From the IMG/VR virus record IMGVR_UViG_3300035208_003115: a DNA stretch of 64,000 bases, one strand, 5' to 3'. A program made the translations under genes and the position numbers. This document shows positions 20,827-34,174 of this stretch, piece after piece (position 1 is the stretch's first letter; each line of letters begins with the position of its first letter). Under the pieces are notes generated by a model. It made no database searches. It saw only the letters and a program-made list of their open reading frames with translations, and was not told the origin of the DNA. Source of the DNA: a virus (Duplodnaviria; Caudoviricetes).

Positions 20827-20852
20827 TGGAATGTAAAGGATTAAGGTTATAC

Positions 20853-20929: not shown

Positions 20930-20931
20930 AA

Positions 20932-21059
20932 TTGAGGCCGTTTAGTGAAAAGGTTAGTGGCTCAGTTGGCAGAGCGCCCGCCCAAAAAGCGGGTTGATGT
21001 GGGTTCGAGTCCCACCTAACTATTGCCTTTAGTGGGCAATCACTAAAACCATCCCTCAA
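20932..21059 (+). ncRNA. tRNA-like cloverleaf (AAA at the anticodon position, no CCA) inside a longer closing stem
   Basis: cloverleaf 20952-21021; flanks TTTAGTGA/TCACTAAA and TTGAGG/CCTCAA pair. Confidence 0.55.
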
Positions 21060-21071
21060 ATTGAGGCAAGT

Positions 21072-21145
21072 GGGTCTAAAGCATTGTAGCGATGCAGTCG
21101 GCTCTTAACCGACAGAGCTCGGGGCAGTACCGGGTAGGCCCACCA
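21072..21145 (+). tRNA. tRNA-Lys(CTT), T-loop GGCAGTA
   Basis: gtcgg-ctCTTaa-ccgac, CCA. Confidence 0.85.
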
Positions 21146-21166
21146 ATTTAGAACTAGGAAGCTACG

Positions 21167-22231
21167 ATGAAGTCAAAGAAATTATACAAGAAGACGTCTG
21201 TTGGAGACTTACAATACTGGCAGATTGAGGTTAAGGGCGCAGAAATAATCACCTACTATGGTAAAGTGGGTGGAACCGAGATGGAGACTCACGATGTAGT
21301 TCGTGAAGCTAAATCTCAGGATACGATTGAGAAGCAAGCTGTGTCTGAAGCTGAGTCACAGTTTAAAGCCAAAGTAAAGAAGGGCTACGTTCTTGAGATA
21401 GATAGAGCTCAGGGCGGAGAGACCAATCATACGGGCGGTTGGTTTCCAATGTTGGCTCATAAGTTTCGGGACCATGGACATAAGATAGTTTATCCGGCGT
21501 ATGTTCAGCCCAAGCTTGATGGGTACCGATGTGTTAGTGATCCGGATCAGACATTGTGGACACGTACTCGTAAGCCTCATTTGGGTGTTCCCCATATTGC
21601 GGCGGCATTACCAGAGGGAGTTCGGCTTGATGGTGAGCTTTATAACCACAAGTACAAGGATAACTTCGAACGTATCTCACATCTGGTAAATCAGAAGTTA
21701 GAGGCAGCTGATGGGCATGAGGTAGTTCAGTACCACGTGTATGATGTGAATATGCCCGGCTCTTTTGAAGAGAGGCATACATGGTTAAGAGCTAACCTTC
21801 CGAAAGGATTGCCTTTCGTTTTGGTGGAAACCAAGAAGGTTAACGACGAAGACGAGTTGATGGAAGCTTTCGAGTATTATCGCTCGAAGGGATATGAAGG
21901 GGCGATGGTAAGGAATGCGGCAGCACCCTATGAAATGAAGCGCTCCTATAATCTGTTGAAGATAAAGGAGTTCGACGATGCTGAGTTCAAGATTGTGGGG
22001 ATTGAGGAGGGCCGAGGCAGATTGATGGGGCATGTCGGTGCCTTCATCTGCGAGACTTCTAATGGGACTCGGTTCAATGCTAAGATGATCGGCGAGACAT
22101 CTAAGCTCAAGGAATACTTTGACAATTATAAACTCTGGGAAGGTAAGTCCCTAACGGTTCAGTATCAGGGTCTTACTACCAAGAATAAAGTGCCTCGATT
22201 TCCCAGAGGAATAAGATTTAGAGAGGACTAG
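21167..22231 (+). CDS. ATP-dependent DNA ligase with WGR-like N-terminus
   Basis: QPKLDGYR, LDGELY, YEGAMVR, LLKIKEF.DAEF, PRFP. Confidence 0.93.
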   Translation: MKSKKLYKKTSVGDLQYWQIEVKGAEIITYYGKVGGTEMETHDVVREAKSQDTIEKQAVSEAESQFKAKVKKGYVLEIDRAQGGETNHTGGWFPMLAHKFRDHGHKIVYPAYVQPKLDGYRCVSDPDQTLWTRTRKPHLGVPHIAAALPEGVRLDGELYNHKYKDNFERISHLVNQKLEAADGHEVVQYHVYDVNMPGSFEERHTWLRANLPKGLPFVLVETKKVNDEDELMEAFEYYRSKGYEGAMVRNAAAPYEMKRSYNLLKIKEFDDAEFKIVGIEEGRGRLMGHVGAFICETSNGTRFNAKMIGETSKLKEYFDNYKLWEGKSLTVQYQGLTTKNKVPRFPRGIRFRED

Positions 22232-22235
22232 GTAA

Positions 22236-22403
22236 ACCCAAGCTCTAGACCCGAGAGGGTGGATAGAGTTCCTACGGCCCATGTGGCGTTGCTTCTCGTT
22301 AGCCGGAGATCGATACGGCAGGAAACGGTAGGATGTAAGCGGTGCGGGTAGGAATGGATTCCCGCCTAGAGCGAACGGGTACTAAGCGCATTACAGTGCG
22401 CTT
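22236..22403 (+). ncRNA. candidate multi-branch structured RNA
   Basis: GCTCTAG/CTAGAGC, ACCC-GAGA-GGGT, TCCTAC/GTAGGA, GCGGG/CCCGC, AAGCGCAT/GTGCGCTT. Confidence 0.5.
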
Positions 22404-22445
22404 TAAGAAGAGTTTAACGAGTTAATGCGCAATAGAATGCGCAAT

Positions 22446-22534
22446 GCGCTTATGGTGAAATGCAGACACGCAGGACTAAGGATCCTGTGGGGGTAAAGTC
22501 CCCCGTGAAGGTGCAAATCCTTCTAGGCGCACCA
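22446..22534 (+). tRNA. tRNA-Leu(AAG), A34
   Basis: cagga-ctAAGga-tcctg, long V arm, A73, CCA. Confidence 0.9.
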
Positions 22535-22539
22535 TACGT

Positions 22540-22626
22540 TCCAGGGTAGGCTAATGGCAAGTCGGCGGCCTGTTAAGTCGCTGGGCCGTAAGGCCCTTCT
22601 AGGTTCGAGTCCTAGTCCTGGAGCCA
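22540..22626 (+). tRNA. tRNA-Asn(GTT) with long variable arm
   Basis: gcggc-ctGTTaa-gtcgc; V arm GGGCC-GTAA-GGCCC; G73, CCA. Confidence 0.88.
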
Positions 22627-22659
22627 TTAAGATAATGCGGAGAACAGTACAGATAAGAT

Positions 22660-22735
22660 TGCGCGTTAGTTTAGCTGGCAAAACGCTCGGCTCTGAACCG
22701 AGAGAGGCTACGTTCGAACCGTAGACGCGCAACCA
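22660..22735 (+). tRNA. tRNA-Gln(CTG)
   Basis: ctcgg-ctCTGaa-ccgag, CCA. Confidence 0.9.
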
Positions 22736-22740
22736 TTTAA

Positions 22741-22770
22741 GGATGGGTTCGAATCCCTGTCCTAGAACCA
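22741..22770 (+). pseudogene. 3' tRNA fragment (T arm, acceptor, CCA)
   Basis: GGGTTCGAATCCC..TCCTAGAACCA with no 5' half visible. Confidence 0.55.
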
Positions 22771-22784
22771 TTAAGAAGGTGAAC

Positions 22785-23201
22785 ATGAGATACGAGTGTA
22801 CAGAAGGAAATCATAATAAGTACTGGGAATATGAGGAACCAATCCGGCATGGGTCTTCATGGGGCGTTAGAGTTACTTGGGGTAAAATTGGAACCGTAGG
22901 TGGAACCCAAGAGAAGATTTTCGAATCCTTAAATGCTGCAGAAGACTTTATTACTGATAAGATTTATGAGAAGGAGACGAAGGGGTATCGAGAGGTTTCT
23001 CAACAATCTACAAGACACGAATCGAATTGTACTTGTTCTATCCATACAGATATCTGGGATATAGGAACTGCGGAGGAAGTGGGTAAAAAGGCAAAAGGTA
23101 AGACAGCCTCTCCTAAGTCTAAAAGGGAGAAGGAAGGAATTGACGTAATCGACTTTGATTTAATTGCTGAGCCAGTTAAGAAGAAAGTGTCAAAGAAATA
23201 A
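22785..23201 (+). CDS. WGR domain protein
   Basis: NKYWE....VTWGKIGT.G...K.F.....A......I.EK..KGY. Confidence 0.8.
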   Translation: MRYECTEGNHNKYWEYEEPIRHGSSWGVRVTWGKIGTVGGTQEKIFESLNAAEDFITDKIYEKETKGYREVSQQSTRHESNCTCSIHTDIWDIGTAEEVGKKAKGKTASPKSKREKEGIDVIDFDLIAEPVKKKVSKK

Positions 23202-23202
23202 T

Positions 23203-23276
23203 CGGAGATAAGTGTTACGGTAGCACACGTGCTTTGGGAGCATGTAGCGCAGGTTCAACTCCTGCATTTCCGACCA
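23203..23276 (+). tRNA. tRNA-Pro(TGG)
   Basis: cgtgc-ttTGGga-gcatg, CCA. Confidence 0.9.
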
Positions 23277-23279
23277 ATA

Positions 23280-23437
23280 CTCCTGCAAGTGTTAGTGGCT
23301 GGTGTCACGGAGTAGTAACGAGAAGGACTCAGCATGTAGTTCAGCAAGTAGAACGCTCGGTTCGGGACCGAGAGGCCGCAGGGGCGGAGCCTGCCATGCT
23401 GACCAATTAGGAAGTTCAACTCTTCCGCGGGAGACCA
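23280..23437 (+). pseudogene. split tRNA remnant (5' from 23280, 3' 23410-23437) bracketing tRNA-Pro(CGG)
   Basis: CTCCTGC pairs with GCGGGAG-ACCA; T arm GGAAG-TTCAACT-CTTCC. Confidence 0.6.
23330..23405 (+). tRNA. tRNA-Pro(CGG)
   Basis: ctcgg-ttCGGga-ccgag, atypical T loop, CCA. Confidence 0.85.
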
Positions 23438-23452
23438 TTTTAAGGAGCTAAA

Positions 23453-23695
23453 ATGCAATTTAGAAAGAAGCCAGTTGTAGTCGAAGCAGTTCAGCTTACC
23501 TCTGCGATGCTTGACGGAATCGAGTCACTTCCAGGGGGTGTCTTTCGTAATTCGGAACGTAACTTCGGCGTTGTAACTCTTGAAGGAGTTATGACGGGTA
23601 ATGCTGGCGATTGGCTAATCACTGGGGTAAAAGGCGAGAAGTATATCTGTCGAAGAGATATCTTTGAACAGACATACGAAAGAGTATTGGTATAG
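23453..23695 (+). CDS. conserved phage protein (PGDYG-like)
   Basis: FRKKPVVVEAVQ...TLEG.M....GDW.I.GVKGE.Y.C..DIF..TY. Confidence 0.75.
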   Translation: MQFRKKPVVVEAVQLTSAMLDGIESLPGGVFRNSERNFGVVTLEGVMTGNAGDWLITGVKGEKYICRRDIFEQTYERVLV

Positions 23696-23697
23696 TT

Positions 23698-23730
23698 GTC
23701 GCGTTCGTCTATCGGTAAGGACACCGCGCT
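23698..23730 (+). pseudogene. 5' half of disrupted tRNA-Glu(TTC)
   Basis: GTCGCGT acceptor, D arm, CCGCG-CT; complements the 3' half at 24324-24365. Confidence 0.85.
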
Positions 23731-23731
23731 G

Positions 23732-23760
23732 TTGACATAATATTCTATATGTGCTATAAT
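23732..23760 (+). promoter_or_regulatory. consensus sigma70 promoter for the HNH cassette
   Basis: TTGACA-17 nt-TATAAT. Confidence 0.9.
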
Positions 23761-23778
23761 CCATAAAAGGAGAATAGC

Positions 23779-24258
23779 ATGATCTCAAAGTTGAACAAGT
23801 TAACTGATGTGCAATTTGTGGGTCTTGTAAGCAAGTGTAACTCAATTGCCGAGGTGGTTTCAAAGCTCGGTTATGCTGTTACTGGTTCTGGACACACGAA
23901 GGTAAGAGATAGAATTCAACTTCTTGGCCTTTATGATTCTTTGATTAAGAGAACTAATCTACTCCGAGGTAGATGTCTTCGATTGGCTAACAGAATCTCG
24001 GATAAAGAGTTTCTTGTGAAGGGCGTAAGAAGACATAACTCATGTCTTAGAAAAAGGTTAATACTACTCGGGATACCTTATTGCTGTTCTGGGTGTGGAC
24101 TTGAGGCTAAGTGGAATGGCAAGGTTTTATCCCTTCAAATCGATCATATCGATGGAGATAGGGACAATAATACAAAAGAGAATTTGCGTTTTATGTGTCC
24201 GAACTGTCATTCCCAGACACCGACGTTTAGTGGGAAGAATAATAAAAGACCGCATTAG
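23779..24258 (+). CDS. HNH homing endonuclease
   Basis: CSGCG..W....L.LQIDHIDGD..NN..ENLRFMCPNCHSQT. Confidence 0.92.
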   Translation: MISKLNKLTDVQFVGLVSKCNSIAEVVSKLGYAVTGSGHTKVRDRIQLLGLYDSLIKRTNLLRGRCLRLANRISDKEFLVKGVRRHNSCLRKRLILLGIPYCCSGCGLEAKWNGKVLSLQIDHIDGDRDNNTKENLRFMCPNCHSQTPTFSGKNNKRPH

Positions 24259-24322
24259 AACATGGGTAGTTCGCCTCCCTTTCAAGGAGGAAAAACGAGT
24301 TCGAGCCTCGTATGCGGTACCA
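24249..24322 (+). tRNA. tRNA-Glu(TTC), replacement copy
   Basis: cctcc-ctTTCaa-ggagg, CCA; contains the HNH stop codon. Confidence 0.88.
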
Positions 24323-24323
24323 A

Positions 24324-24365
24324 TTCAACGCGGAGAGGGGAGTTCAATTCTCCCACGCGATACCA
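24324..24365 (+). pseudogene. 3' half of disrupted tRNA-Glu(TTC)
   Basis: TTC-AA-CGCGG, T arm, ACGCGAT-ACCA. Confidence 0.85.
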
Positions 24366-24378
24366 TTAAGGAGTTAAG

Positions 24379-24570
24379 ATGAAGTGTACTTATTGTGAAA
24401 ATGAAGCAGTAATGGAATTAACAAATCTTAAGAATAAAGTAACAAAGAGATTTTGCAAGGGGCACTTTGGGGAGTTCATCACGGATGGGCAATCCAGGGT
24501 TCAAGAACAGTTCTTGGATGTAACAATGGGTCCAAGAGTTGATGCTCACGGAAACCGTGTTCAGCATTAA
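24379..24570 (+). CDS. small Cys/His protein
   Basis: CxxC...CxxH, RBS. Confidence 0.55.
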   Translation: MKCTYCENEAVMELTNLKNKVTKRFCKGHFGEFITDGQSRVQEQFLDVTMGPRVDAHGNRVQH

Positions 24571-24574
24571 ATAC

Positions 24575-24648
24575 ACGACAATGGTGTAACAGTAGCATCA
24601 CGGACTCCAAACCCGTGGGCGAACGTGCAAATCGTTCTTGTCGTGCCA
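24575..24648 (+). tRNA. tRNA-Trp(CCA)
   Basis: acgga-ctCCAaa-cccgt, G73, CCA. Confidence 0.85.
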
Positions 24649-24653
24649 ATTAT

Positions 24654-24729
24654 GGGCGAGTAGGCCAACGGCAGAGTCAGCGCGCTCAGAACGCGTCCAG
24701 TGCGGGTTCGAATCCCGCTTCGCCCACCA
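24654..24729 (+). tRNA. tRNA-Leu(CAG) lacking a long variable arm
   Basis: gcgcg-ctCAGaa-cgcgt, 5-nt variable loop, CCA. Confidence 0.85.
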
Positions 24730-24746
24730 AATTAAGGAGAACTAGA

Positions 24747-25049
24747 GTGAAGAAATCTGATAAAGGTTTTACTGTAATTGAACTTATAATTCCTATTGCT
24801 ATCATTGGTATTTTGATAGCTGTAGCAACTGACCGGTGGCTTTCAGGCCAGGAAAAGTATTATCAGATTCAGCTTTCTAATGGTACAGTTGTAGCTACAA
24901 AAGGATATACTAAATCCTACTGTGGTCTCAATTTTAAGTCTCTTATGACTGGCGCAGAATATCATTGTATTCAGAATGCGAAAGTCGTAGAGATAAAACC
25001 TGGAGAAGCAAATGAGATTGGAGAGAAATCGTCTACTGCATCAAAATAA
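24747..25049 (+). CDS. type IV prepilin-like protein
   Basis: GTG start with AGGAG; KG/FTVIELIIPIAIIGILIAVA class III signal. Confidence 0.8.
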   Translation: MKKSDKGFTVIELIIPIAIIGILIAVATDRWLSGQEKYYQIQLSNGTVVATKGYTKSYCGLNFKSLMTGAEYHCIQNAKVVEIKPGEANEIGEKSSTASK

Positions 25050-25050
25050 T

Positions 25051-25127
25051 ACCTGTATAGCTTAGCGGTCCAAAGCGTCTCCCTGTCACGGAGAAGATCG
25101 CCGGTTCAAATCCGGTTGCAGGTGCCA
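25051..25127 (+). tRNA. tRNA-Asp(GTC)
   Basis: tctcc-ctGTCac-ggaga, CCA. Confidence 0.92.
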
Positions 25128-25130
25128 TAT

Positions 25131-25217
25131 GGAAGGGTAAACTCGTACGGAGCGAGGAAGCATCCCATGGGATGAACTGCCACGGCTCAGTTGGTTCGAC
25201 TCCAACACCTTCCACTA
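25131..25217 (+). pseudogene. degenerate tRNA-like sequence
   Basis: GGAAGG/CCTTCC, intact T arm, collapsed anticodon loop, ends ACTA. Confidence 0.55.
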
Positions 25218-25231
25218 ATTAAGGAGCTAAG

Positions 25232-25471
25232 ATGCCACGGTCTAAGTTAGTTATTGCGTCTTTGGTAGCCCAAAAATTCGGTCAACACCTCAAGAAATTG
25301 AGGGATAAGAGGAAGCTATCCCAGTACAAGTTGGCCGCAAAGATCAAAATGCACCCGATGATGATCAACCATTATGAGAAGGGAAGACGTCAGCCAACCC
25401 TTGGATCAATTATCAGATTGGCGGAGGGATTGGGTGTTCCCCCCGCCGACCTATTGAAGTATGAAAAGTAA
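25232..25471 (+). CDS. XRE-family HTH regulator
   Basis: LKKLR....LSQ..LA......I..YEKG.RQP. Confidence 0.9.
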   Translation: MPRSKLVIASLVAQKFGQHLKKLRDKRKLSQYKLAAKIKMHPMMINHYEKGRRQPTLGSIIRLAEGLGVPPADLLKYEK

Positions 25472-25473
25472 GT

Positions 25474-25550
25474 GCCCTCTTCGTTCAATTGAACAGGACC
25501 CGCGGCTACGAACCGCGAGATGGTGGGTTTGAGTCCCCCGGAGGGTACCA
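25474..25550 (+). tRNA. tRNA-Arg(ACG)
   Basis: cgcgg-ctACGaa-ccgcg, CCA. Confidence 0.9.
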
Positions 25551-25553
25551 TAT

Positions 25554-25627
25554 ACCAAGGTCGGCCAAATACTAGGCTTCCAGACGTCAGTCTGGCGATG
25601 CAGGTGAGATCCCTGCCCTTGGTACCA
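25554..25627 (+). tRNA. atypical tRNA with 6-nt anticodon loop CGTCAG (identity unclear)
   Basis: ACCAAGG/CCTTGGT, ccaga/tctgg, CCA. Confidence 0.55.
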
Positions 25628-25632
25628 TTAAG

Positions 25633-25707
25633 GCTGGGATAGCTTAAGTAGTAGAGCGCTGCCTTGGTAAGGCTGATATCCGAGTGCAAGTCTCGGTCCT
25701 AGCTCCA
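25633..25707 (+). tRNA. tRNA-Thr(GGT)
   Basis: loop ttGGTaa, CCA. Confidence 0.85.
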
Positions 25708-25710
25708 GTT

Positions 25711-25785
25711 GCCCTCAAAGCATAGACAGCGATGCAGGGGTTTTGTAAACCTCAGAGCTCGGCGCACATCCGGGTGAGGGCTCCA
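25711..25785 (+). tRNA. tRNA-Thr(TGT)
   Basis: ggggt-ttTGTaa-acctc, atypical T loop, CCA. Confidence 0.85.
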
Positions 25786-25971
25786 TTAAGGAGAACAGAT
25801 GTACTTTTCACATTACTTCGAAGGTATCGGTTGGGACTTTGTTATAGATATCTTCGCCAATCAGTCAGCCGTTAAGTTTACTTGGAAGCCAAAGTTTTTC
25901 TGGGAGAAGGATCATCGCGGGGTTCACTGGTTTACGTGTTGTTGCTGTATTGAAAGATAAGGAGAAATAAG

Positions 25972-26280
25972 ATGTTGAAATGGGATACGAAGTTAGAAAA
26001 TTGGCTTATAAAGCAGATAGATCAATGGTCCGTCAATGGCGAAGCAGATAAGATCGGTGATTTAATTGGATATTTGCGGGATAAGCTGTGCTCTGCTCAA
26101 ATTCCCGAAGAGTCTGATAATTCTCCCTACGAGCATTTTGAAAATGGTTTTAATCTCGGGGCTGAAAACTGGGATAAGAAGTTCATCGCCATCGAGTTTG
26201 AGGAAGATATTTTTATCTTTGAGATGTCAGCTAAAGAAGTGAAGAATAAAGTTACTACCTGGATTAAGAGCCGCCCGTAG
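25972..26280 (+). CDS. hypothetical protein
   Basis: RBS; stop lies inside the next tRNA. Confidence 0.6.
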   Translation: MLKWDTKLENWLIKQIDQWSVNGEADKIGDLIGYLRDKLCSAQIPEESDNSPYEHFENGFNLGAENWDKKFIAIEFEEDIFIFEMSAKEVKNKVTTWIKSRP

Positions 26281-26353
26281 CCAGGCCACTCTCCGGAGGT
26301 GGTAGCTGTAGCTGGAGCTGCGAACGCAGGTTCAAATCCTGCCGGGCGGGCCA
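26271..26353 (+). tRNA. tRNA-Arg(CCG), rearranged D arm
   Basis: CCGCCCG/CGGGCGG, ccact-ctCCGga-ggtgg, T arm, CCA. Confidence 0.75.
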
Positions 26354-26367
26354 TATAAGGAGCTAAG

Positions 26368-26655
26368 ATGAGTCGTTTCAACGTAGAAGTTAAGCTTCTT
26401 CATGCCGGTCAACCAAGACCATATGCCGATTCCCGGCGCGAAGCAGAACTAATCTTTAAGAATTGGTGGGACTCTACAACCGGCGAACGTGAAGGAAACT
26501 GGGATCCAGAAGAAGAGCTAGTCCGACAACTAACAAAACTTCTAGTTGCTGACTTTAAGGAAAAGCCAGTCTGGCACGAGAATCGTCTCCAAAAGATTGA
26601 GAAGCTAGGGGTGGGCAGATGGTTAGTTGAAGTTATAGAGCCCTTCTGCGATTAA
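26368..26655 (+). CDS. hypothetical protein
   Basis: RBS AGGAG. Confidence 0.6.
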   Translation: MSRFNVEVKLLHAGQPRPYADSRREAELIFKNWWDSTTGEREGNWDPEEELVRQLTKLLVADFKEKPVWHENRLQKIEKLGVGRWLVEVIEPFCD

Positions 26656-26656
26656 C

Positions 26657-26739
26657 GTCCCTGTAGCCGAAGGCGTTTCCTAAACGCTTAAACGTAAAGG
26701 GAGCTGAAAATGTTGGTTCGAATCCAACCAGGGATACCA
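26657..26739 (+). tRNA. tRNA-Arg(CCT), rearranged D arm
   Basis: GTCCCTG/CAGGGAT, ggcgt-ttCCTaa-acgct, T arm, CCA. Confidence 0.75.
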
Positions 26740-26896
26740 TTATGGGACATAAGAGACGAGGGAAATTGTTTGGTCTAAGGCGGAAGGGCATACTCTGGGA
26801 CCATAATTGGGATGGCGGGAAGGTAGATCGTTTTGATAAGTTCTGGAAGAGATATTGGAGTCGCTGGTTAAGACGCCAGGGAAATAAGGAGCTGGG

Positions 26897-27370
26897 ATGA
26901 AGAGATTGGTGTTAATTTTGCTGCTTATTGCCAGTCCTGCGTGGACAATTAGTCCCGGATGGATACATATAGATAGAAGGGAATTAACCCTTAGGTATAC
27001 GGAAGGTGACCAAGCCTGGATTTTCCCCGTATGTATAGGTCGAAAAGGAACTCAAGACAAGGCAACATGTACCCCGGCCGGGGAATACCGTATTATTTAT
27101 AAGAAAAAGAATCCATGGTATCGCAATGTAGGAGAAGATGCCGAGTGGGTTCCTCCATATAATCAGGATAAACGTAATAAATATGGGACGAGAATTATGG
27201 GGCTAGATTATAGGCGGACAGAATCTTCCCGCCGCATGGCTATTCACGGGACTAATGAACCCGAGTTAATTCCCGGCTATTATAGCGCTATGTGTATTAG
27301 ACTTAGAAATGAGGATGTTGAGTTTTTATACAATAAAGTTGAAAATGGGTGTCGGGTTATTATAGAATAG
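26897..27370 (+). CDS. L,D-transpeptidase (YkuD family) with signal peptide
   Basis: TPAGEY.I..K..NP.W, AIHGTN..L....S.MCIRL.NEDVE.LY. Confidence 0.9.
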   Translation: MKRLVLILLLIASPAWTISPGWIHIDRRELTLRYTEGDQAWIFPVCIGRKGTQDKATCTPAGEYRIIYKKKNPWYRNVGEDAEWVPPYNQDKRNKYGTRIMGLDYRRTESSRRMAIHGTNEPELIPGYYSAMCIRLRNEDVEFLYNKVENGCRVIIE

Positions 27371-27386
27371 ACTATAAGTTCTATGT

Positions 27387-27468
27387 GCCCCAGTAGCCGG
27401 GCCGAGCTTCTACCTCGGTACCCGTAGTGGAGCTGGAATCAGGGGTTCAAATCCCTTCTGGGGTACCA
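27387..27468 (+). tRNA. tRNA-Arg(TCT), rearranged D arm
   Basis: GCCCCAG/CTGGGGT, ccgag-ctTCTac-ctcgg, T arm, CCA. Confidence 0.75.
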
Positions 27469-27485
27469 ATTTTAAAGGAGCTAAG

Positions 27486-27821
27486 ATGAAGAAATTCGAA
27501 GTAACCAAGGAGCATATCAAATTACTAAAGGAGATGTATGTATCTTGGTGGGACTGTGAGTTTGGGGCTCCCGCTATTGATCCCAAAAGACCTTATGGTA
27601 ATCGCGATGTTCTTCGGGATCTTGCCGAGACTGTATATGGGGCAAAAAATCTCAGATATAGTCGAGACGGAGAACTCCCTGAGTCGATAGAGATAAAGCT
27701 TTGTGACATTCACACAGAGATGAAGACAGTCTTACAGATACTAGTTAATAACTGTAGAATTAGCCCTGGGATGTACTGGACGAAAGATGATTCAGAAAGA
27801 GTTTGGGTAAGAGAGAAGTAA
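27486..27821 (+). CDS. hypothetical phage protein
   Basis: RBS; DPKRPYGN motif. Confidence 0.65.
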   Translation: MKKFEVTKEHIKLLKEMYVSWWDCEFGAPAIDPKRPYGNRDVLRDLAETVYGAKNLRYSRDGELPESIEIKLCDIHTEMKTVLQILVNNCRISPGMYWTKDDSERVWVREK

Positions 27822-27837
27822 AAGTAATCGAGTATAC

Positions 27838-27913
27838 GAGCCCTTCGTCTAAATGCTAAGGACGCCCGCCATAAGGCGGAGAAATGTTAGTTCGCAACTA
27901 GCAGGGCTCACCG
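27838..27913 (+). pseudogene. atypical tRNA with CAT-containing short loop, ending CCG
   Basis: GAGCCCT/AGGGCTC, D and T arms present. Confidence 0.55.
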
Positions 27914-27915
27914 AA

Positions 27916-28003
27916 GGAAGGGTGAACATGGGTACGTTAACCCCGCTCGAAACGGGACGGCCCCTTAAAAGGTTTACAGGTTCGAGTCCTGTCCCTTCCG
28001 CCA
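27916..28003 (+). tRNA. tRNA-Ser(CGA)
   Basis: loop ctCGAaa, V arm, G73, CCA. Confidence 0.88.
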
Positions 28004-28026
28004 TTGAGGAGTTATCAGCTGGACTA

Positions 28027-28114
28027 GGAAGGTTGACGGAACGGTAACGTGCCCGCTTGGAAAGCGGGAGCCTGGGTTAAACCGGAGCAAGTTCAACTCT
28101 TGCACCTTCCGCCA
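28027..28114 (+). tRNA. tRNA-Ser(GGA)
   Basis: cccgc-ttGGAaa-gcggg, V arm, CCA. Confidence 0.92.
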
Positions 28115-28174
28115 TTATGATTGCAAATACTATCATTAAGTGATAGGATATGCAAACGGAATAAAGGAACTAAA

Positions 28175-28414
28175 ATGTTAGTTAGCATTGTTCGTTGCCC
28201 GATGTCACATGCTGAATGGATAGTAGATGTACCGGCAATCCCTCAGCCCGGCGATGACATTCAGATGTGGGATCCTGGAGATCTAGCGCTTACAGGTGTG
28301 CCCGGGGGAAAGAATAAAACTATTAATCTTCAGGTTGAGTCAGTGATGTGGGTAGGACCACTGGAGCGCATGCCCCTCTCTTTGCATCCTACGATTCATT
28401 GTAGGGAGAAATAA
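28175..28414 (+). CDS. hypothetical protein
   Basis: ORF 28121..28414; ATG after AAGGA at 28175. Confidence 0.5.
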   Translation: MLVSIVRCPMSHAEWIVDVPAIPQPGDDIQMWDPGDLALTGVPGGKNKTINLQVESVMWVGPLERMPLSLHPTIHCREK

Positions 28415-28857
28415 TGATCTATGTAAAGATTGAGCTTTGGCCTTTCGGCGATAGAAATCAGCGCAAGACTTTAGGCGAGATGGTTATTGCCAACGATAGC
28501 TCAGGGTCTGCCACCAAGGGTAACTACAAGGTCTGGCACAAGACTGACCCAGAGAAGCTTTTAGATAATACTCAAAATCCTGGAGAGAGTTTATTGCTCC
28601 GATCTTGGCTCGGGGAAATGAAGCCCGATAGAGTAGAGGACTATCCTCGGAAGGCTGTAACAATCTGGCACTTGATTCGTAGGGCGATTGAAGCTGCTGG
28701 GTTTACCGGGAAGAAGCCATCCCTAAAAGAGATGGTAGTTGATGAAATGCTTAAACAGATATCTGTTCTGGTCAGCCCTGAGGCTGAAGAAGCACTTAAG
28801 AACGCTCATGTTTGTAAAAAGAATGGCGGATGTAAAAACGGAGAATGTGATAGGTGA
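28414..28857 (+). CDS. hypothetical protein
   Basis: ORF, translationally coupled. Confidence 0.6.
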   Translation: MIYVKIELWPFGDRNQRKTLGEMVIANDSSGSATKGNYKVWHKTDPEKLLDNTQNPGESLLLRSWLGEMKPDRVEDYPRKAVTIWHLIRRAIEAAGFTGKKPSLKEMVVDEMLKQISVLVSPEAEEALKNAHVCKKNGGCKNGECDR

Positions 28858-28934
28858 GCTCTCTTAGCTCAGCTGGTCAGAGCGCCTGCATGACATGCAG
28901 GAGGTCGCTGGTTCGAGCCCAGCAGAGAGCACCA
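28858..28934 (+). tRNA. tRNA-Val(GAC)
   Basis: cctgc-atGACat-gcagg, CCA. Confidence 0.93.
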
Positions 28935-28958
28935 TTCAGGCAATAAAATAAGCAGTAT

Positions 28959-29045
28959 GGATGGATCGCATAGCGGCAATTGCGGCGGGCTGTAGACCCG
29001 CTGGCCGTAAGGTCTACGTTGGTTCGAGTCCAACTCCATCCACCA
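28959..29045 (+). tRNA. tRNA-Tyr(GTA)
   Basis: gcggg-ctGTAga-cccgc, V arm, CCA. Confidence 0.93.
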
Positions 29046-29059
29046 TTTAGGAGATTGAA

Positions 29060-29284
29060 ATGGTCATGATGAAAACCGTAGATAACGTCTTATTCCTTCA
29101 TAAGGGTGAGACTATTGATGATTTGAAGATGATAGATAGGTGTCGGGCGAATATAATCATTGACTCAAATGGTCTAGTGCTTAAGAATAGGTATGGATAT
29201 GCTATTCCAGAGGTTGAGCTTAAGTTAAAGAAGCTACTACGGAAGCTGGGCAGGCCGGTAATGCGTCTCCTTGCTAAGGAGTAG
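29060..29284 (+). CDS. hypothetical protein overlapping tRNA-Ser(GCT)
   Basis: RBS AGGAG. Confidence 0.5.
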   Translation: MVMMKTVDNVLFLHKGETIDDLKMIDRCRANIIIDSNGLVLKNRYGYAIPEVELKLKKLLRKLGRPVMRLLAKE

Positions 29285-29328
29285 CCCGGGTAAAACTGGA
29301 GTAGGTTCAATTCCTACAGCTTCCGCCA
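29241..29328 (+). tRNA. tRNA-Ser(GCT)
   Basis: ctcc-ttGCTaa-ggag, V arm, G73, CCA. Confidence 0.88.
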
Positions 29329-29333
29329 TTAAT

Positions 29334-29407
29334 GTCCAGTTGGTCTAGAGGTTGGGCCTGGGCCTGCAAAGCCCAAGAGACTAGTTCGAGTCTAGTACTG
29401 GACTCCA
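29334..29407 (+). tRNA. tRNA-Cys(GCA)
   Basis: tgggc-ctGCAaa-gccca, U73, CCA. Confidence 0.92.
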
Positions 29408-29411
29408 AATT

Positions 29412-29645
29412 ATGGCATCACGAAAGATTTACCAACTTGAAGCTGAGGGAACCGATGTTCTTGCGGGCAGATGGTTTCCAATCACTGGCATTCAGGGGAG
29501 CTATAGCTACTGCCTAGGAGCTCTTTATATGGCGGATAGCTATTACCCTTGCCCTGCATATAGGATTCGTGATATATTTACTGGGGAGATTAAAGATCAG
29601 ACTCGGGGGCGAAGTGGAGTTAGTACAGGATTACAGACGTTCTAA
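29412..29645 (+). CDS. hypothetical protein
   Basis: ORF between tRNAs. Confidence 0.45.
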   Translation: MASRKIYQLEAEGTDVLAGRWFPITGIQGSYSYCLGALYMADSYYPCPAYRIRDIFTGEIKDQTRGRSGVSTGLQTF

Positions 29646-29647
29646 GT

Positions 29648-29682
29648 GGATCTGTGGCGTACTAGTGTGCGCGCCGCGCTGA
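29648..29682 (+). pseudogene. 5' half of a disrupted tRNA, probably Phe
   Basis: GGATCTG-TG-GCGT..GCGC-G-CCGCG-CT-GA, truncated in the anticodon just before the HNH promoter. Confidence 0.7.
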
Positions 29683-29713
29683 CTTCCGGGCGGACTTATG
29701 ATATAATAAAGAT

Positions 29714-30175
29714 ATGAAGAAGCCAACGTGGGAACCTAGCGAATTGATTGTAGCTGTTCGTACATCTAGAACTGTTTCGGATGTTTTGCGCAAACTTGGC
29801 CTGAAGGTTAGGCCTGGAAACTATACAACTATTCACAAGTATGTGAATAAGTTAGGAATAGACACTAGTCACTTTTTGGGATGTGCTCATGGAACGTCAG
29901 TTCCTGGCAATAAGCTTTCTACAGATTCAATTCTAAGAAAAGGGTCCTATTACCATAGTTCGGACTTAGGACCAAGGCTTATTAAAGAAGGGCTATTAAA
30001 TCCTGTCTGTTCTATTTGTGGTCTTAATAGTAATTGGAATGGCAAGAGCCTTAGATTAGTTCTAGATCACATTAATGGGACGCATACAGATAATCGTTTA
30101 TCTAATCTTCGACTTTTGTGCCCTAATTGCAATAGTCAAACAGATACATTTTGTAGAAGAAAAACGGACAGGTAG
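29714..30175 (+). CDS. HNH homing endonuclease
   Basis: CSICG..W....L.L.LDHING...DN.LSNLRLLCPNC.SQT; TATAAT at 29702. Confidence 0.92.
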   Translation: MKKPTWEPSELIVAVRTSRTVSDVLRKLGLKVRPGNYTTIHKYVNKLGIDTSHFLGCAHGTSVPGNKLSTDSILRKGSYYHSSDLGPRLIKEGLLNPVCSICGLNSNWNGKSLRLVLDHINGTHTDNRLSNLRLLCPNCNSQTDTFCRRKTDR

Positions 30176-30240
30176 CTCAATGGTAGAGCGGAGGTTTGAA
30201 GCGCCTCGCGTTGGGGGTCCGATTCCCTCCCTGTCCACCA
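30166..30240 (+). tRNA. tRNA-Phe(GAA), replacement copy
   Basis: gaggt-ttGAAgc-gcctc, CCA; contains the HNH stop codon. Confidence 0.88.
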
Positions 30241-30245
30241 TATAG

Positions 30246-30319
30246 GCGGGATTGGTTTAATGGTAGGACGGGACGCTTCCAACGTCCAGGTGTCGGTTCA
30301 ATTCCGTCATCCCGCTCCA
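30246..30319 (+). tRNA. tRNA-Gly(TCC)
   Basis: ggacg-ctTCCaa-cgtcc, U73, CCA. Confidence 0.93.
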
Positions 30320-30369
30320 TTTGAGGTTAGAATATGTCAAGTTTTTTAGCAAGAAAACTTGACTAGTTT

Positions 30370-30443
30370 GCGGGTTGGGTGTGGTAGTAGCATATGACAT
30401 TGCCAATGTTAAGGTACCGGAGCGTAACCGGTAACCCGCTCCA
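30370..30443 (+). tRNA. tRNA-Gly(GCC)
   Basis: tgaca-ttGCCaa-tgtta, atypical T loop, CCA. Confidence 0.82.
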
Positions 30444-30445
30444 AT

Positions 30446-30532
30446 CCCCTGGTGGTGGAATGTAGACGCGCGAGGCTCAAGCCCTCGTGGCTCGAAAGAG
30501 TCGTGTAGGTTCGAATCCTACCCGGGGGACCA
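30446..30532 (+). tRNA. tRNA-Leu(CAA)
   Basis: cgagg-ctCAAgc-cctcg, V arm, CCA. Confidence 0.9.
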
Positions 30533-30544
30533 ACTGAGGAACTT

Positions 30545-30949
30545 ATGAAATCTACTAAGGGTTTTGCAATTGAAATACAGGATAGTCTTGGTCTTAGTCA
30601 TCGTAGACAAGCTGAGGAGTTTGCTACCTGGTTTATAGGAGAGGTTACTGTCCGAAGTAATTGGAATCATTTGACCTGTGGCGGTCCGAGGCCTAGCGAT
30701 GATAAACATTGGCCTTTACAGCGTGGAGTTTATGGTCACGAAATCGGACACTCAGGTCTTGTATTCCGCAGAGCATGTAAGAACCAACGCATCTTTCAGA
30801 TCGTAAAAGCGGATGAGTTAGTATTGGCCGATTCTGGTTACACCTGTAAGTGCCCTTGCATTATGCATAGAGGCGGGCAGAAAGTAATCAATAAGTATGG
30901 CGATACAAGGTGCTCTAGGTTTTATACAACTGGAGTTCTAAAAGGATAG
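30545..30949 (+). CDS. hypothetical protein
   Basis: RBS GAGG. Confidence 0.5.
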   Translation: MKSTKGFAIEIQDSLGLSHRRQAEEFATWFIGEVTVRSNWNHLTCGGPRPSDDKHWPLQRGVYGHEIGHSGLVFRRACKNQRIFQIVKADELVLADSGYTCKCPCIMHRGGQKVINKYGDTRCSRFYTTGVLKG

Positions 30950-30976
30950 GGAAGTGGGGAGGCCGGTGCCTCGAGC
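30950..30976 (+). pseudogene. 5' half of disrupted tRNA-Ile(TAT)-like gene
   Basis: GGAAGTG pairs with CGCTTCC-ACCA (31543-31553); D arm GAGGC-CGGT-GCCTC. Confidence 0.7.
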
Positions 30977-31353
30977 TATAAATTATAGTGGGGATAATGT
31001 AGCTCCATATGGCAATTAGCGCATAGGAGTTTACATTTGAGACTTTCTTTTAAAAGTTCTTCTTTATTTCGGTTCATCAATGAATCGAGTCCTAGAGTAA
31101 ATCGCTTCTCTTTCGGGTCTTCATGATGGAAGGAAAGGGCAGATGCGTTTTTAGAATACCCACATATTTCGCATTTCCCTCCTTTATTTTGGATTAAGAA
31201 CTTTCGCATATCTATTCCTCTTTGCGCAGAAGTTCTTAAATAGTTTGGTTGAGAGTGATAGAAATGTTGACGACATTTGTCAGAGCAGTATTTCTTGCTC
31301 GGGTTGGGAGTTTCAAAAACTTTCTTACAGTCTGGACATGTTTTAGTATTCAT
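30976..31353 (-). CDS. HNH endonuclease with N-terminal Zn finger
   Basis: CPDC...YCSDKC; KCEICGY....AL.FHH.DP..K...KC.LLCANCH.E.H. Confidence 0.88.
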   Translation of the reverse strand: MNTKTCPDCKKVFETPNPSKKYCSDKCRQHFYHSQPNYLRTSAQRGIDMRKFLIQNKGGKCEICGYSKNASALSFHHEDPKEKRFTLGLDSLMNRNKEELLKESLKCKLLCANCHMELHYPHYNL

Positions 31354-31398
31354 GATAGGATTATAACATAGGTGTTTATATTTTTAAATATAAACAAT

Positions 31399-31490
31399 GG
31401 CCCCGTGGTCTAATGGTAAGACGAACGGTTTATACCCGTTGAGCCCTGGACTGGGGCGCAATCTCGGTTCGAATCCGGGCGGGGCTACCA
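31399..31490 (+). tRNA. tRNA-Ile(TAT) with long variable arm, replacement copy
   Basis: aacgg-ttTATac-ccgtt, V arm GCCCT-GGACT-GGGGC, CCA. Confidence 0.85.
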
Positions 31491-31491
31491 A

Positions 31492-31553
31492 TTTATAAAC
31501 GGTTGCCCTAGATTGGGGCCTAGATCCAGGATCGACACCTGGCGCTTCCACCA
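31492..31553 (+). pseudogene. 3' half of disrupted tRNA-Ile(TAT)-like gene
   Basis: TT-TAT-AA-ACGGTT, V arm GCCCT-AGATT-GGGGC, T arm CCAGG/CCTGG, ACCA. Confidence 0.75.
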
Positions 31554-31566
31554 AAATGAGGACGTA

Positions 31567-31881
31567 ATGAGTTTAGAGAAGAAGAATATTAGAGAGCAGT
31601 TTCGCAGGGAAGTTTTAATGCGCGATGGTCTCAAGTGTCGAATATGTGGCTTCTCTGATGGATCTTTTGATGCTCATCACATAACTCCTCGGGAAGATAT
31701 GCCTAATGGTGGATATGTTAAAGAGAATGGGATAACCTTATGCCCCGATTGCCATATTAAGGCTGAGGTTTCGGCCAAAGGAGAGATGGCGATTATTGGC
31801 TGGTGCCCCAAGGAACTTTACGATTTAATAAATTCTAGTTATGAGAAAGCCGTTGAGGCTTCAAATAAAATGCAGATGTAA
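31567..31881 (+). CDS. HNH endonuclease
   Basis: RD..KCRICG....AHHI......ENGITLCPDCH. Confidence 0.85.
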   Translation: MSLEKKNIREQFRREVLMRDGLKCRICGFSDGSFDAHHITPREDMPNGGYVKENGITLCPDCHIKAEVSAKGEMAIIGWCPKELYDLINSSYEKAVEASNKMQM

Positions 31882-31914
31882 GGCTCGTCTAATGGTTAGG
31901 GCGCTGGGTTGTGG
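31878..31914 (+). pseudogene. 5' half of disrupted tRNA-His(GTG)
   Basis: GTAAGGC-TC-GTCT-AATGGTT-AGGGC..CTGGG-TT-GTG-G, then AT-rich sequence. Confidence 0.7.
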
Positions 31915-31983
31915 TAATTTTTATGATTTCTTCAACGGTTAGAGAAACCATAAATAATAAATCAATTGAGGTAGTGCTTGTAT

Positions 31984-32058
31984 GGTAACTATAGTTTAGT
32001 GGAAGAACGGTAGGTTGTGGACCTATTCGCCGGAGTTCGATTCTCCGTAGTTACCCCA
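31984..32058 (+). tRNA. tRNA-His(GTG)
   Basis: G-1:C73, gtagg-ttGTGga-cctat, CCA. Confidence 0.92.
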
Positions 32059-32071
32059 TTAAGGAGTTGTT

Positions 32072-32449
32072 GTGGATCGTCCTAAATATGTAAATAAGTT
32101 TATAGAGTTGGCGAAAAAAGTTTCCCGTAATGGGATTCATCATCGCTATCTGGTTGGTGCTGTCCTGGTAAAAAATGGTCAACCCATTGCTTGGGGTTCC
32201 AATAATAATAAGACACATACCCTTATGATGGGGCAAACTCTTCATGCAGAGATCTCCTGCTTAATCGGTAAGAGATATCGTGACCTACATAACACGACAA
32301 TGTTTGTAGCAAGAACATCAAAGAAACACAATATCGTGGGTATGGCTCGCCCATGCCCTACTTGCCGTAGTATACTTACTAGCTTTGGAATCAAAGATGT
32401 ATATTTTACGGGCGAGAAAGGTATTGTAGATTACCTGAAATTGTGCTAG
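32072..32449 (+). CDS. Zn-dependent nucleoside/nucleotide deaminase (CDA/TadA superfamily)
   Basis: VGAVLVKNG, HAE, PCPTC. Confidence 0.88.
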   Translation: MDRPKYVNKFIELAKKVSRNGIHHRYLVGAVLVKNGQPIAWGSNNNKTHTLMMGQTLHAEISCLIGKRYRDLHNTTMFVARTSKKHNIVGMARPCPTCRSILTSFGIKDVYFTGEKGIVDYLKLC

Positions 32450-32472
32450 ATTAACCGAGCTAGGAGAGAACT

Positions 32473-32985
32473 ATGCCAATAGATTATTCCGCAGTTATAG
32501 AAGAGTTCATGAAATATGAGCTCGATCCAGCAAGACTCAAAGAATCAAATATTTATGGAAAGCTCCTAATGGTTCGCGAGAACATGGATCTTTCCTCTAC
32601 CGCTAGAGCCAAAGCCGCAGATGGTTTTGTCGCTGGAGCGATTGCTGTTATCGCTACCAAGGCTGGAACATGTAAATATTGGGAACGTAAGCTTAAGGAA
32701 GAAGTTAAACATCTGCGGATCGGGAAACGCATTCATTATAAAACAGTTCTACCCGACGGCATTGCCCGGATGAGTAAACAGTATAATGACTGGCTTGACG
32801 AACAGGTTAGTGCCGACGCTGAAGTAATTGAGTGCGAGAAGAAACAAGCTTTGGCGGAGTCTTCGAGAGCCTATTGGGAATTTTTATTAGAGGCTCTTAA
32901 GGAAATGGGTAAGCGCATTGATTCTGCCGGGATGCTGACCGCTGTTGAAGAGAAAAGAAACCCTCCGGTAGGACTCGGTAGCTAA
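32473..32985 (+). CDS. helical protein, possibly a UvsY-like recombination mediator
   Basis: coiled-coil pattern, upstream of recA; weak. Confidence 0.35.
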   Translation: MPIDYSAVIEEFMKYELDPARLKESNIYGKLLMVRENMDLSSTARAKAADGFVAGAIAVIATKAGTCKYWERKLKEEVKHLRIGKRIHYKTVLPDGIARMSKQYNDWLDEQVSADAEVIECEKKQALAESSRAYWEFLLEALKEMGKRIDSAGMLTAVEEKRNPPVGLGS

Positions 32986-33233
32986 TGCCTAACTTCAATT
33001 TTGAATGTAATAATAAGAAATGTGCCCATCAGTTTGATGAGATATTTCTTACTTTCAAGGACTATGAAGAACAGGGCCCTCCCAAATGTCCGAAATGCGG
33101 GAAAGATTCAACTCGTATTTACTGGATGATAAACGGAGAGTCAATGAATATTAGATATAAGGGCCTTCCTATGGGGGATGGTCCTTCTGCTGGGATTACA
33201 AGTCTAAGCAGTAGATATCCAAAGGGGAGATAA
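32985..33233 (+). CDS. FmdB-family Zn ribbon protein
   Basis: MP.F.FEC..C.HQF......CPKCG. Confidence 0.8.
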   Translation: MPNFNFECNNKKCAHQFDEIFLTFKDYEEQGPPKCPKCGKDSTRIYWMINGESMNIRYKGLPMGDGPSAGITSLSSRYPKGR

Positions 33234-33664
33234 TGACAGATAAGAACTATGAAATAATGGAGTTCCGCATTGTCGATAGGATGGAAGGAGTGGATCCCGC
33301 TCTTCTTAGCGATCCCTATTTCATGTTTAAACTGCTCTTGGAGGCAGCAGAACTTGCTGAAATGATCCCCCTAAATGCTAATATGCAGTTTTATCCTCGT
33401 GATCCCGAGAATCCACAATTTTTGGGGATATCTTATTATCTCACTGTATCAGCTTCCCACCTTGATATTCATACATACTCCAAAGAGGGTTTCTGTACTT
33501 TAACCGTAGCGGTCTGTAAGGAGATTGACAATGCCAGAAAAGCCTACGAGCACATCCGGGGAGCTCTTAAGCCAGCTCACTGCGAGCCAGTTGAGACAGC
33601 TCCAGAAAGACGTATCTCAGCTAACCCCCCTAAATCGAGACCTAAAAAGAGACGAAAAAGCTAG
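33233..33664 (+). CDS. S-adenosylmethionine decarboxylase-like proenzyme
   Basis: GIS...VSASHLDIHTY.KEG....V.VC resembles ESHxSIHTWPE. Confidence 0.65.
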   Translation: MTDKNYEIMEFRIVDRMEGVDPALLSDPYFMFKLLLEAAELAEMIPLNANMQFYPRDPENPQFLGISYYLTVSASHLDIHTYSKEGFCTLTVAVCKEIDNARKAYEHIRGALKPAHCEPVETAPERRISANPPKSRPKKRRKS

Positions 33665-34163: not shown

Positions 34164-34174
34164 GAGGAAGTTAG

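Follow-up and report, generated by a model that had tools for sequence, protein, structure and literature searches.

HNH endonuclease genes and same-anticodon tRNA genes within and beside broken tRNA genes of a phage tRNA array

INTRODUCTION

Links between homing endonucleases and tRNA arrays have been noted for cyanobacteria and phages (PMC8421152). Here, we describe a phage tRNA array in which HNH endonuclease genes and intact tRNA genes lie within or beside broken tRNA genes. The array occupies 20.3 to 32.1 kb of a 64,000-nucleotide (nt) stretch of DNA from a virus of the Caudoviricetes (IMG/VR record IMGVR_UViG_3300035208_003115), referred to below as the window. It runs on the plus strand and is interspersed with small open reading frames (ORFs), four of which encode HNH endonucleases (HNH1, HNH2, HNH3, and HNH4). 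We call the inserts cassettes and the intact tRNA gene of each insert its cargo.

In phage T4, SegB is a free-standing GIY-YIG homing endonuclease encoded in the tRNA gene cluster that cuts tRNA genes at a T-loop motif; when it homes, the tRNA-region markers of the recipient are replaced, and the tRNA genes around it spread as well (PMC2330249). The cassettes resemble this system in that a nuclease gene lies in a phage tRNA cluster and its product would recognise conserved tRNA-gene DNA. They differ in that SegB is a GIY-YIG rather than an HNH enzyme, targets the T loop and not the anticodon arm, and lies between genes; no tRNA halves flanking a nuclease gene and a same-anticodon tRNA have been described for it. 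In phage T5, F-TflIV (hegA) and the other F-Tfl HNH proteins are reported to be site-specific endonucleases of the tRNA region (Akulenko et al. 2004, as cited in PMC2330249 and PMC10644984). F-TflIV aligns with residues 74 to 154 of HNH1 (40% identity; E value, 1e-11), and its gene directly follows two tRNA genes. However, the alignment covers only the catalytic half of HNH1, and the T5 gene is intergenic, with neither a split tRNA nor an abutting downstream tRNA.

In intronless homing, exemplified by T4 SegF and SegE, a nuclease gene lies beside a resistant allele of the gene that is cut in competitors, and the pair spreads by break repair with co-conversion. SegE is among the free-standing endonucleases described in PMC2330249. 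Unlike with SegF and SegE, the whole unit lies here inside the sensitive allele, which brings target, nuclease, and probable resistant allele together in one genome.

Introns can also carry a nuclease into a tRNA gene; one example is I-Ssp6803I in the tRNA-fMet intron. Anticodon loops of bacterial and phage tRNA genes are reported to house group I introns with homing endonucleases (bioRxiv 10.1101/2020.01.27.920355). The cassettes share with these introns the anticodon-loop insertion site and the nuclease gene within the insert, but they have no detected ribozyme, carry a promoter and a complete tRNA, and would replace the interrupted tRNA instead of being spliced from it. Archaeal split and permuted tRNA genes are likewise divided at the anticodon loop into two halves; those halves occupy separate loci, their leaders are complementary, and trans-splicing by a dedicated endonuclease unites them (PMC3218864), whereas the phage halves flank a mobile insert, and some are decaying.

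The cassettes are therefore best placed as a variation on intronless homing and on tRNA-cluster endonucleases, both of which are known. The original prediction, made from the letters of the window, had known of no description of the architecture. In full texts available without a subscription, we found no paper with a tRNA gene split by a nuclease gene and a same-anticodon tRNA, but the concept proved less isolated than had been supposed, as it amounts to intronless homing inside the sensitive allele.

RESULTS

Two tRNA genes are interrupted by a nuclease gene and an intact tRNA gene

The coordinates of all cassette components are collected in Table 1. When the two halves of the old tRNA-Glu gene were rejoined, they formed a 75-nt cloverleaf with all stems intact and the loop CT-TTC-AA, which ARAGORN called as tRNA-Glu(ttc). 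The break falls between U33 and position 34, i.e., in the anticodon loop. The insert of 593 bp (23731 to 24323) contains a consensus promoter, a ribosome-binding site, HNH1, and an intact tRNA-Glu(ttc), and its boundaries lie one base upstream of the TTGACA box and one base past the CCA of the cargo. Old and cargo tRNA-Glu are identical at 48 of 75 positions; the anticodon loop is common to both, while the anticodon stems differ (CCGCG versus CCTCC). An intron-tolerant ARAGORN scan of the whole window recovered the same pair of Glu halves, and its sole other match that did not reuse part of an intact tRNA was a poor structure within coding DNA. The predicted arrangement, in which a broken tRNA gene encloses an HNH gene together with an intact tRNA of the same anticodon, holds in full for Glu.

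Features of other kinds of tRNA-gene insert were also sought at this locus. No integrase is encoded in the 593-bp insert, the old gene is not restored, and its halves do not overlap, as they might in an integrase-type island. The ends of the insert showed no mutual pairing by eye. Complementary leaders of the archaeal type were not seen either; the 5' half is followed by the promoter, and the 3' half is preceded by the end of the cargo tRNA.

The Ile(TAT) cassette is likewise complete, with both halves of an old long-arm tRNA(TAT) gene present around the antisense HNH3 gene and a new tRNA(TAT), as had been predicted. The 7/7 acceptor pairing between the fragments includes one G-U pair. Rejoined halves were called as tRNA(tat) by ARAGORN at several choices of junction and were folded into a class-II cloverleaf by RNAfold; about 4 to 5 nt of the anticodon stem are either missing or shared with the terminal ACCA of the cargo. 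This cargo, a 92-nt tRNA(tat), was what the old 3' half matched best.

Table 1. Components of the cassettes and related tRNA fragments in the window
Feature	Position	Strand	Basis or remark
Possible tRNA-like remnant around tRNA-Pro(CGG) 23330-23405	23279..23437	+	no nuclease
Old tRNA-Glu(TTC), 5' half, up to U33	23698..23730	+	rejoins with 24324-24365
Cassette 1 promoter, sigma-70-type TTGACA-17-TATAAT	23732..23760	+	12/12 match with TG
HNH1 gene, 159 aa	23779..24258	+	Pfam HNH 27.4 bits; phrog_10822, E 3e-39
Cargo tRNA-Glu(TTC)	24249..24322	+	ARAGORN; Rfam 59.5 bits
Old tRNA-Glu, 3' half, anticodon TTC through CCA	24324..24365	+	ARAGORN on rejoined halves
Broken tRNA, 5' half ending CCGCG-CT-GA	29648..29682	+	folded by hand
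Cassette 2 promoter-like site, spans junction	29679..29707	+	10/12 match with TG
HNH2 gene, 153 aa	29714..30175	+	phrog_10822, E 3e-47; HNH1 homologue
Cargo tRNA-Phe(GAA)	30166..30240	+	ARAGORN; Rfam 61 bits
Old long-arm tRNA(TAT), 5' fragment, acceptor and D arm	30950..30975	+	acceptor pairs 7/7 with 31541-31547
HNH3 gene, 125 aa, antisense to array	30976..31353	-	phrog_2255, E 7e-23
HNH3 promoter-like site, extended -10	31360..31388	-	10/12 match with TG
Cargo tRNA(TAT), long variable arm	31399..31490	+	ARAGORN; Rfam 56.2 bits
Old tRNA(TAT), 3' part: TTTATAA loop, stem, long variable arm, T arm, acceptor, CCA	31491..31553	+	
HNH4 gene, 104 aa	31567..31881	+	Pfam HNH 37.1 bits; gene called at equivalent place in L204
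Old tRNA-His, 5' half through anticodon GTG and G37	31878..31914	+	likeness to new tRNA-His
Intact tRNA-His(GTG)	31985..32058	+	ARAGORN; Rfam 60.7 bits

Phe and His retain a single fragment, and the Pro-like case is weak

Four break-and-replace cases and a Pro-like fifth had been predicted in all, and the remaining three stand less firmly than Glu and Ile(TAT). For Phe, a 5' half, HNH2, and the cargo tRNA-Phe(GAA) are present. Folding of the 5' half by hand gave the acceptor strand GGATCTG, the D stem GCGT/GCGC, and the anticodon stem CCGCG; since the anticodon is incomplete (GA?), the broken gene is not proven to be Phe. Joining this half to every position of 20 to 34 kb and submitting the products to ARAGORN gave only chimeras with intact tRNAs, and that region therefore holds no orphan 3' half. 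A complement search with the Phe acceptor strand was too permissive to use.

For His, the old fragment is collinear with the 5' part of the new tRNA-His, with 26 of 38 positions identical, including GGTTGTGG, and the intact tRNA-His starts 70 nt past it. The prediction that no nuclease was left here is accurate for the insert itself, but HNH4 lies immediately upstream of the fragment, and its TAA stop falls within the acceptor stem of the fragment. The old tRNA-His may therefore once itself have been a tRNA abutting a nuclease gene.

The Pro-like halves (23279 to 23329 and 23406 to 23437) comprise a T arm and 3' acceptor at 23409 to 23437 and a complementary heptamer at 23279 to 23285. ARAGORN rejected the rejoined form, RNAfold gave a four-way junction with an abnormal anticodon arm, and the middle is not tRNA-like; this case is weak.

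HNH1, HNH2, and HNH3 are free-standing genes with promoter-like sites of their own

All four HNH proteins match PHROG families annotated as HNH endonuclease (best such E values, 3e-39, 3e-47, 7e-23, and 2e-10 for HNH1 to HNH4). Against the cut-off of 21.4 bits for Pfam HNH (PF01844), HNH2 scored just under, at 21.2 bits, and HNH3 had no Pfam match. The top PHROG match of HNH4, a generic HNH protein, is to a family annotated as RNA ligase (phrog_24030; E value, 7e-14). HNH1 and HNH2 are 36% identical (E value, 2e-24), and both show C-x2-C ... D-H-I ... N ... C-P-N-C-H/N, the predicted catalytic His/Asn motif flanked by Cys pairs, in alignment. HNH3 belongs to a different family, and an exact-sequence look-up found no record of it.

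In both the Glu and the Phe cassette, the nuclease stop codon was expected to lie inside the cargo tRNA, and this is confirmed: the stops of HNH1 and HNH2 are TAG at cargo tRNA positions 8 to 10, with an overlap of 10 nt in each case. The three best promoter-like sites of the array (20 to 33 kb) lie directly upstream of HNH1, HNH3, and HNH2, and the TTGACA-17-TATAAT site before HNH1 is the best in these 13 kb. Each of these nuclease genes is therefore autonomous and not a passenger of array transcription. Furthermore, HNH1, HNH2, and HNH3 are free-standing in the usual sense, with no Rfam intron family around the gene and with expression signals of their own.

The leaders of the three genes vary. 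HNH1 has an 18-nt leader with AAGGAG, whereas the -10 boxes of HNH2 and HNH3 end 6 nt before the ATG (within 29702 to 29716 and, on the minus strand, 31351 to 31365, respectively), and the mRNAs of these two genes may for this reason be leaderless.

The heptamer CCGCGCT, which consists of the 5' strand of the anticodon stem plus C32 and U33, has two copies in the array, and both lie at the breakpoints of the tRNAs invaded by the homologous HNH1 and HNH2. The old gene and the cargo have the same anticodon in Glu, Ile, and His, and Phe is compatible with this; over all cases, same-anticodon pairing was seen four to six times. The anticodon stems of old and cargo genes differ.

Relatives of the nucleases adjoin or split tRNA genes in other phages

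A survey of the HNH1/HNH2 family covered 80 relatives on viral contigs (loci and contigs carry L-numbers below). ARAGORN found tRNAs within 2.5 kb in 71 of these loci. In 31 of the 80, a tRNA on the same strand begins near the last base of the HNH stop codon (-38 to +19 nt); 5 of these 31 tRNA-abutting loci show the exact 10-nt overlap. Relatives of HNH3 had tRNAs within 2.5 kb in seven of eight loci, often antisense to the nuclease.

The nested layout recurs in L185, an unrelated contig, which carries two more cassettes, a Leu-type TAA/TAA and a GA?/GAG pair. In the first, an HNH gene and a 74-nt tRNA(TAA) are enclosed by 2401 to 2433 and 3030 to 3072, which together form a 74-nt cloverleaf with anticodon TAA. 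In the second, 422 to 459 and about 1400 to 1448 flank an HNH gene, a tRNA-Leu(GAG) that overlaps the HNH stop, and a small ORF. The anatomy of promoter, HNH gene, and same-anticodon tRNA inserted in a broken tRNA at or beside the anticodon loop is upheld, and the layout is not confined to this genome. In L174, an HNH gene alone, without cargo, splits the anticodon arm of a tRNA whose acceptor strands pair 7/7.

Inserts without cargo are also found in crAss-like contigs (L111 to L125) and in the GenBank Bohxovirus PV686213 (L191, 1441 to 2491), where the anticodon loop of a tRNA is interrupted by an insert of about 977 nt whose 300-aa product is a longer HNH1 relative; the split tRNA is unannotated, and the 3' noncoding part of the insert is conserved. 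These inserts may be group I introns, since their 3' part resembles the core by eye, but Rfam did not confirm this: Intron_gpI reached 10.5 bits (E value, 2.6), and nothing reached the gathering score.

Two phages that have been isolated, S-CRM01 (g201) and Escherichia phage EcSzw_1, show the same tight HNH-tRNA arrangement. The cyanophage S-CRM01 has a long-arm tRNA(TAT) (L206, 1638 to 1727) after an HNH gene, with a 10-nt overlap, and such a tRNA(TAT) also occurs in L137 and L170.

The HNH proteins of L153 and L161 are 76% identical, and their downstream tRNAs are Gln and Tyr, respectively; a tRNA(TAA) lies upstream in both. The L185 HNH, a 56% relative of these two, lies inside the split tRNA(TAA), and the intact L161 tRNA and the broken L185 gene have CAGTTGACTTAA in common. 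A nearest-neighbour test that set HNH proteins against their downstream tRNAs gave a shared amino acid in 10 of 34 pairs (4.4 expected), a result to which we give little weight because the rows are not independent.

Authenticity and composition of the array

No deposited phage gave a near match to the window. Over 13779 to 25105 and 25078 to 36175, it is matched at 100% identity by contigs that other assemblies produced from two or three samples, and assembly artefact is therefore excluded as the source of the cassette arrangement. In two of the other assemblies, a contig terminates at 24278, within the cargo tRNA-Glu, and the end of a third contig, at 25105, lies within tRNA-Asp. These ends may reflect population variants or k-mers that also occur in other tRNA genes. 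The G+C content of the HNH genes (0.37 to 0.41) differs too little from that of the window (0.434) to argue for a foreign origin.

Between 20.3 and 32.1 kb, ARAGORN called 24 tRNAs, Rfam contributed 5 more, and several further cloverleaf-like genes were seen by eye. A search of 19 to 34 kb against Rfam at E values up to 1 returned tRNAs only, with no group I or II intron family. Four tRNA-like genes without an ARAGORN call, at 21087 to 21160, 25710 to 25786, 30370 to 30443, and 24575 to 24648, have the anticodons CTT, TGT, GCC, and CCA, respectively. The first three are cloverleaves by eye with the nonstandard T loops GGCAGTA, CGCACAT, and AGCGTAA, and Rfam calls two of the four (40.9 and 48.5 bits). 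Three other genes (26271 to 26353, 26657 to 26739, and 27387 to 27468) have in common an unusual layout, GTAGCC ... GGAGCTG, without a normal D arm; two of them received weak Rfam tRNA calls (34 to 35 bits), and 26271 to 26353 received none. Size class and anticodon are mismatched in a 76-nt tRNA with the Leu anticodon CAG (24654 to 24729), an 87-nt tRNA with the Asn anticodon GTT (22540 to 22626), and the 92-nt tRNA with TAT at 31399 to 31490.

Other genes of the array encode an ATP-dependent DNA ligase that contains a WGR domain (21167 to 22231) and, separately, a further protein with this domain (22743 to 23201). The ligase has relatives in other phages, but these do not adjoin tRNA arrays; the nearest relative has only 67% ligase identity and lacks the array, and none of the relatives of the ligase or of ORF 23453 to 23695 carries an array like that of the window. 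A small ORF at 24738 to 25049 has a type IV pilin-like N terminus (a hydrophobic segment after KGFT), and the same gene in L201 has a weak N_methyl Pfam match on record.

DISCUSSION

The cassettes have a defined anatomy, this anatomy recurs, and the HNH1/HNH2 family is associated with tRNA genes. Collectively, we consider these observations to be probably explained by free-standing HNH endonucleases that target the anticodon arm of tRNA genes and reside beside an allele with the same anticodon but a different stem, as in intronless homing, with the whole unit integrated in the sensitive gene. Where the nucleases cut, that the cargo allele resists them, how the breaks were repaired, and in what order the events took place are inferred. 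Cutting near the insertion site is suggested by the anticodon-loop insertions and by the relatives inserted in anticodon arms or loops, and the differences in anticodon stem between old and cargo genes are compatible with resistance of the cargo allele.

The proposed mechanism is as follows. Each cassette would be an autonomous unit consisting of a promoter, a nuclease gene, and a tRNA packed against that gene without a spacer. The nuclease most likely recognises anticodon-arm DNA of a tRNA gene, and the linked tRNA, with the same anticodon and a different anticodon stem, would probably escape cutting, which is the logic of intronless homing. Break repair would place the unit into the sensitive resident gene, whose two halves would stay behind as flanking scars and could provide homology arms for further homing wherever a similar tRNA gene is met. 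Insertion would cost little, because the intact cargo tRNA would keep decoding. In syntenic relatives, the unit would spread by gene conversion without leaving a scar, a route that fits the many relatives that lie between intact tRNAs. The scars in the window may be of different ages, from the intact Glu halves through the slightly damaged Ile to the single fragments of Phe and His. Furthermore, since the HNH stop codon lies inside the cargo tRNA, processing by RNase P would leave the nuclease mRNA without its stop. Transcript processing has been proposed to lower nuclease expression in the case of the T5 enzymes, which are encoded within the tRNA gene cluster (PMC2330249).

Several observations weigh against this explanation. 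The occurrence of CCGCGCT at both the Glu and the GA? break suggests that recognition is not anticodon specific, and matching anticodons may reflect selection on survivors rather than nuclease specificity. Nuclease and downstream tRNA are not an obligate unit, because HNH proteins of 76% identity have different tRNAs. The nested state is an exception, since flanking halves were found in only 2 of the 31 tRNA-linked relatives (L185 and L174). Both Phe (within 20 to 34 kb) and His lack a 3' half, and Rfam/Infernal with truncated-hit detection made no tRNA call on either 5' fragment. Finally, a check for related phages with the empty allele, proposed along with the original prediction, turned up none: exact junction patterns of the rejoined Glu gene matched no uninterrupted allele in viral or metagenome contigs, and the pattern of the L185 Leu-type junction matched none in viral contigs.

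Some of these points would also be expected under ordinary intronless homing with accidental co-conversion, in which the tRNA is merely the unselected neighbour of the nuclease gene in the donor and the halves are by-products of imprecise repair with no further role. SegB takes neighbouring tRNA genes along in this way, and both the different tRNAs downstream of the 76%-identical relatives and the rarity of halves among relatives fit it. However, the ORF and the tRNA are fused without a spacer in many lineages, and wherever the comparison can be made, here and in L185, cargo and broken gene have the same anticodon; we therefore regard accidental co-conversion as unlikely.

A slightly poorer candidate, and also an unlikely one, is that the nucleases are not causal, with shuffling of the array by duplication, illegitimate recombination, and deletion leaving fragments behind while HNH genes gather in a permissive, nonessential region. 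The array is indeed rich in odd, degenerate tRNA-like genes, the Pro-like and His inserts contain no nuclease, and most HNH relatives lie between intact tRNAs. In contrast, shuffling would not readily make the edges of the Glu insert coincide exactly with a promoter and a tRNA end inside an anticodon loop, repeat the nested layout with the same HNH family in the unrelated L185, pair like anticodons as often as was seen, or place CCGCGCT at both the HNH1 and the HNH2 break.

The junction of U33 and position 34 is where the anticodon nuclease PrrC cleaves and where repair enzymes of T4 rejoin the ends. The outer tRNA might by analogy still be made here, with the insert acting as an intron without a ribozyme that is removed, or whose flanking halves are ligated, at the RNA level (e.g., RNase P and 3' trimming of the cargo would free the 3' half for ligation). 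Although the Glu halves are undamaged, the Glu break falls at exactly that point, the 3' half begins one base past the cargo CCA, and a ligase gene lies within the array, we judge this route very improbable, as Rfam found no ribozyme, the insert ends and leader sequences lack complementarity by eye, the ligase has DNA-ligase domains and its relatives do not adjoin tRNA arrays, bases or entire halves are gone from the other cassettes, as would be expected of scars, and a same-anticodon cargo makes rescue needless.

Returning to anticodon-arm-targeting nucleases that lie beside a same-anticodon allele, we put forward tentatively, as a bolder possibility than the homing itself, that the cassettes make up a mobile-element class of their own, a self-contained cut-and-replace gene drive for tRNA genes, which combines recognition of the anticodon arm, portable homology arms, and a decoding cargo made immune by its altered anticodon stem. 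If so, such a unit would home into any phage with a similar tRNA gene, syntenic or not, and isoacceptor turnover in phage arrays would be driven in large part by units of this kind, with relevance to escape from host anticodon nucleases.

Homing endonucleases of phage tRNA clusters are known, and their targets are mostly unmapped. Each cassette places a target next to a nuclease and a probable resistant allele and so predicts both a cleavage site and a resistant sequence, and S-CRM01 and Escherichia phage EcSzw_1 are possible laboratory models of the HNH-tRNA unit. If confirmed, the cassettes would show a selfish nuclease invading a useful noncoding gene without an intron, by bringing a replacement along, and would explain, through a concrete mechanism, why phage tRNAs turn over fast and have odd shapes, which bears on escape from tRNA-cutting host defences.

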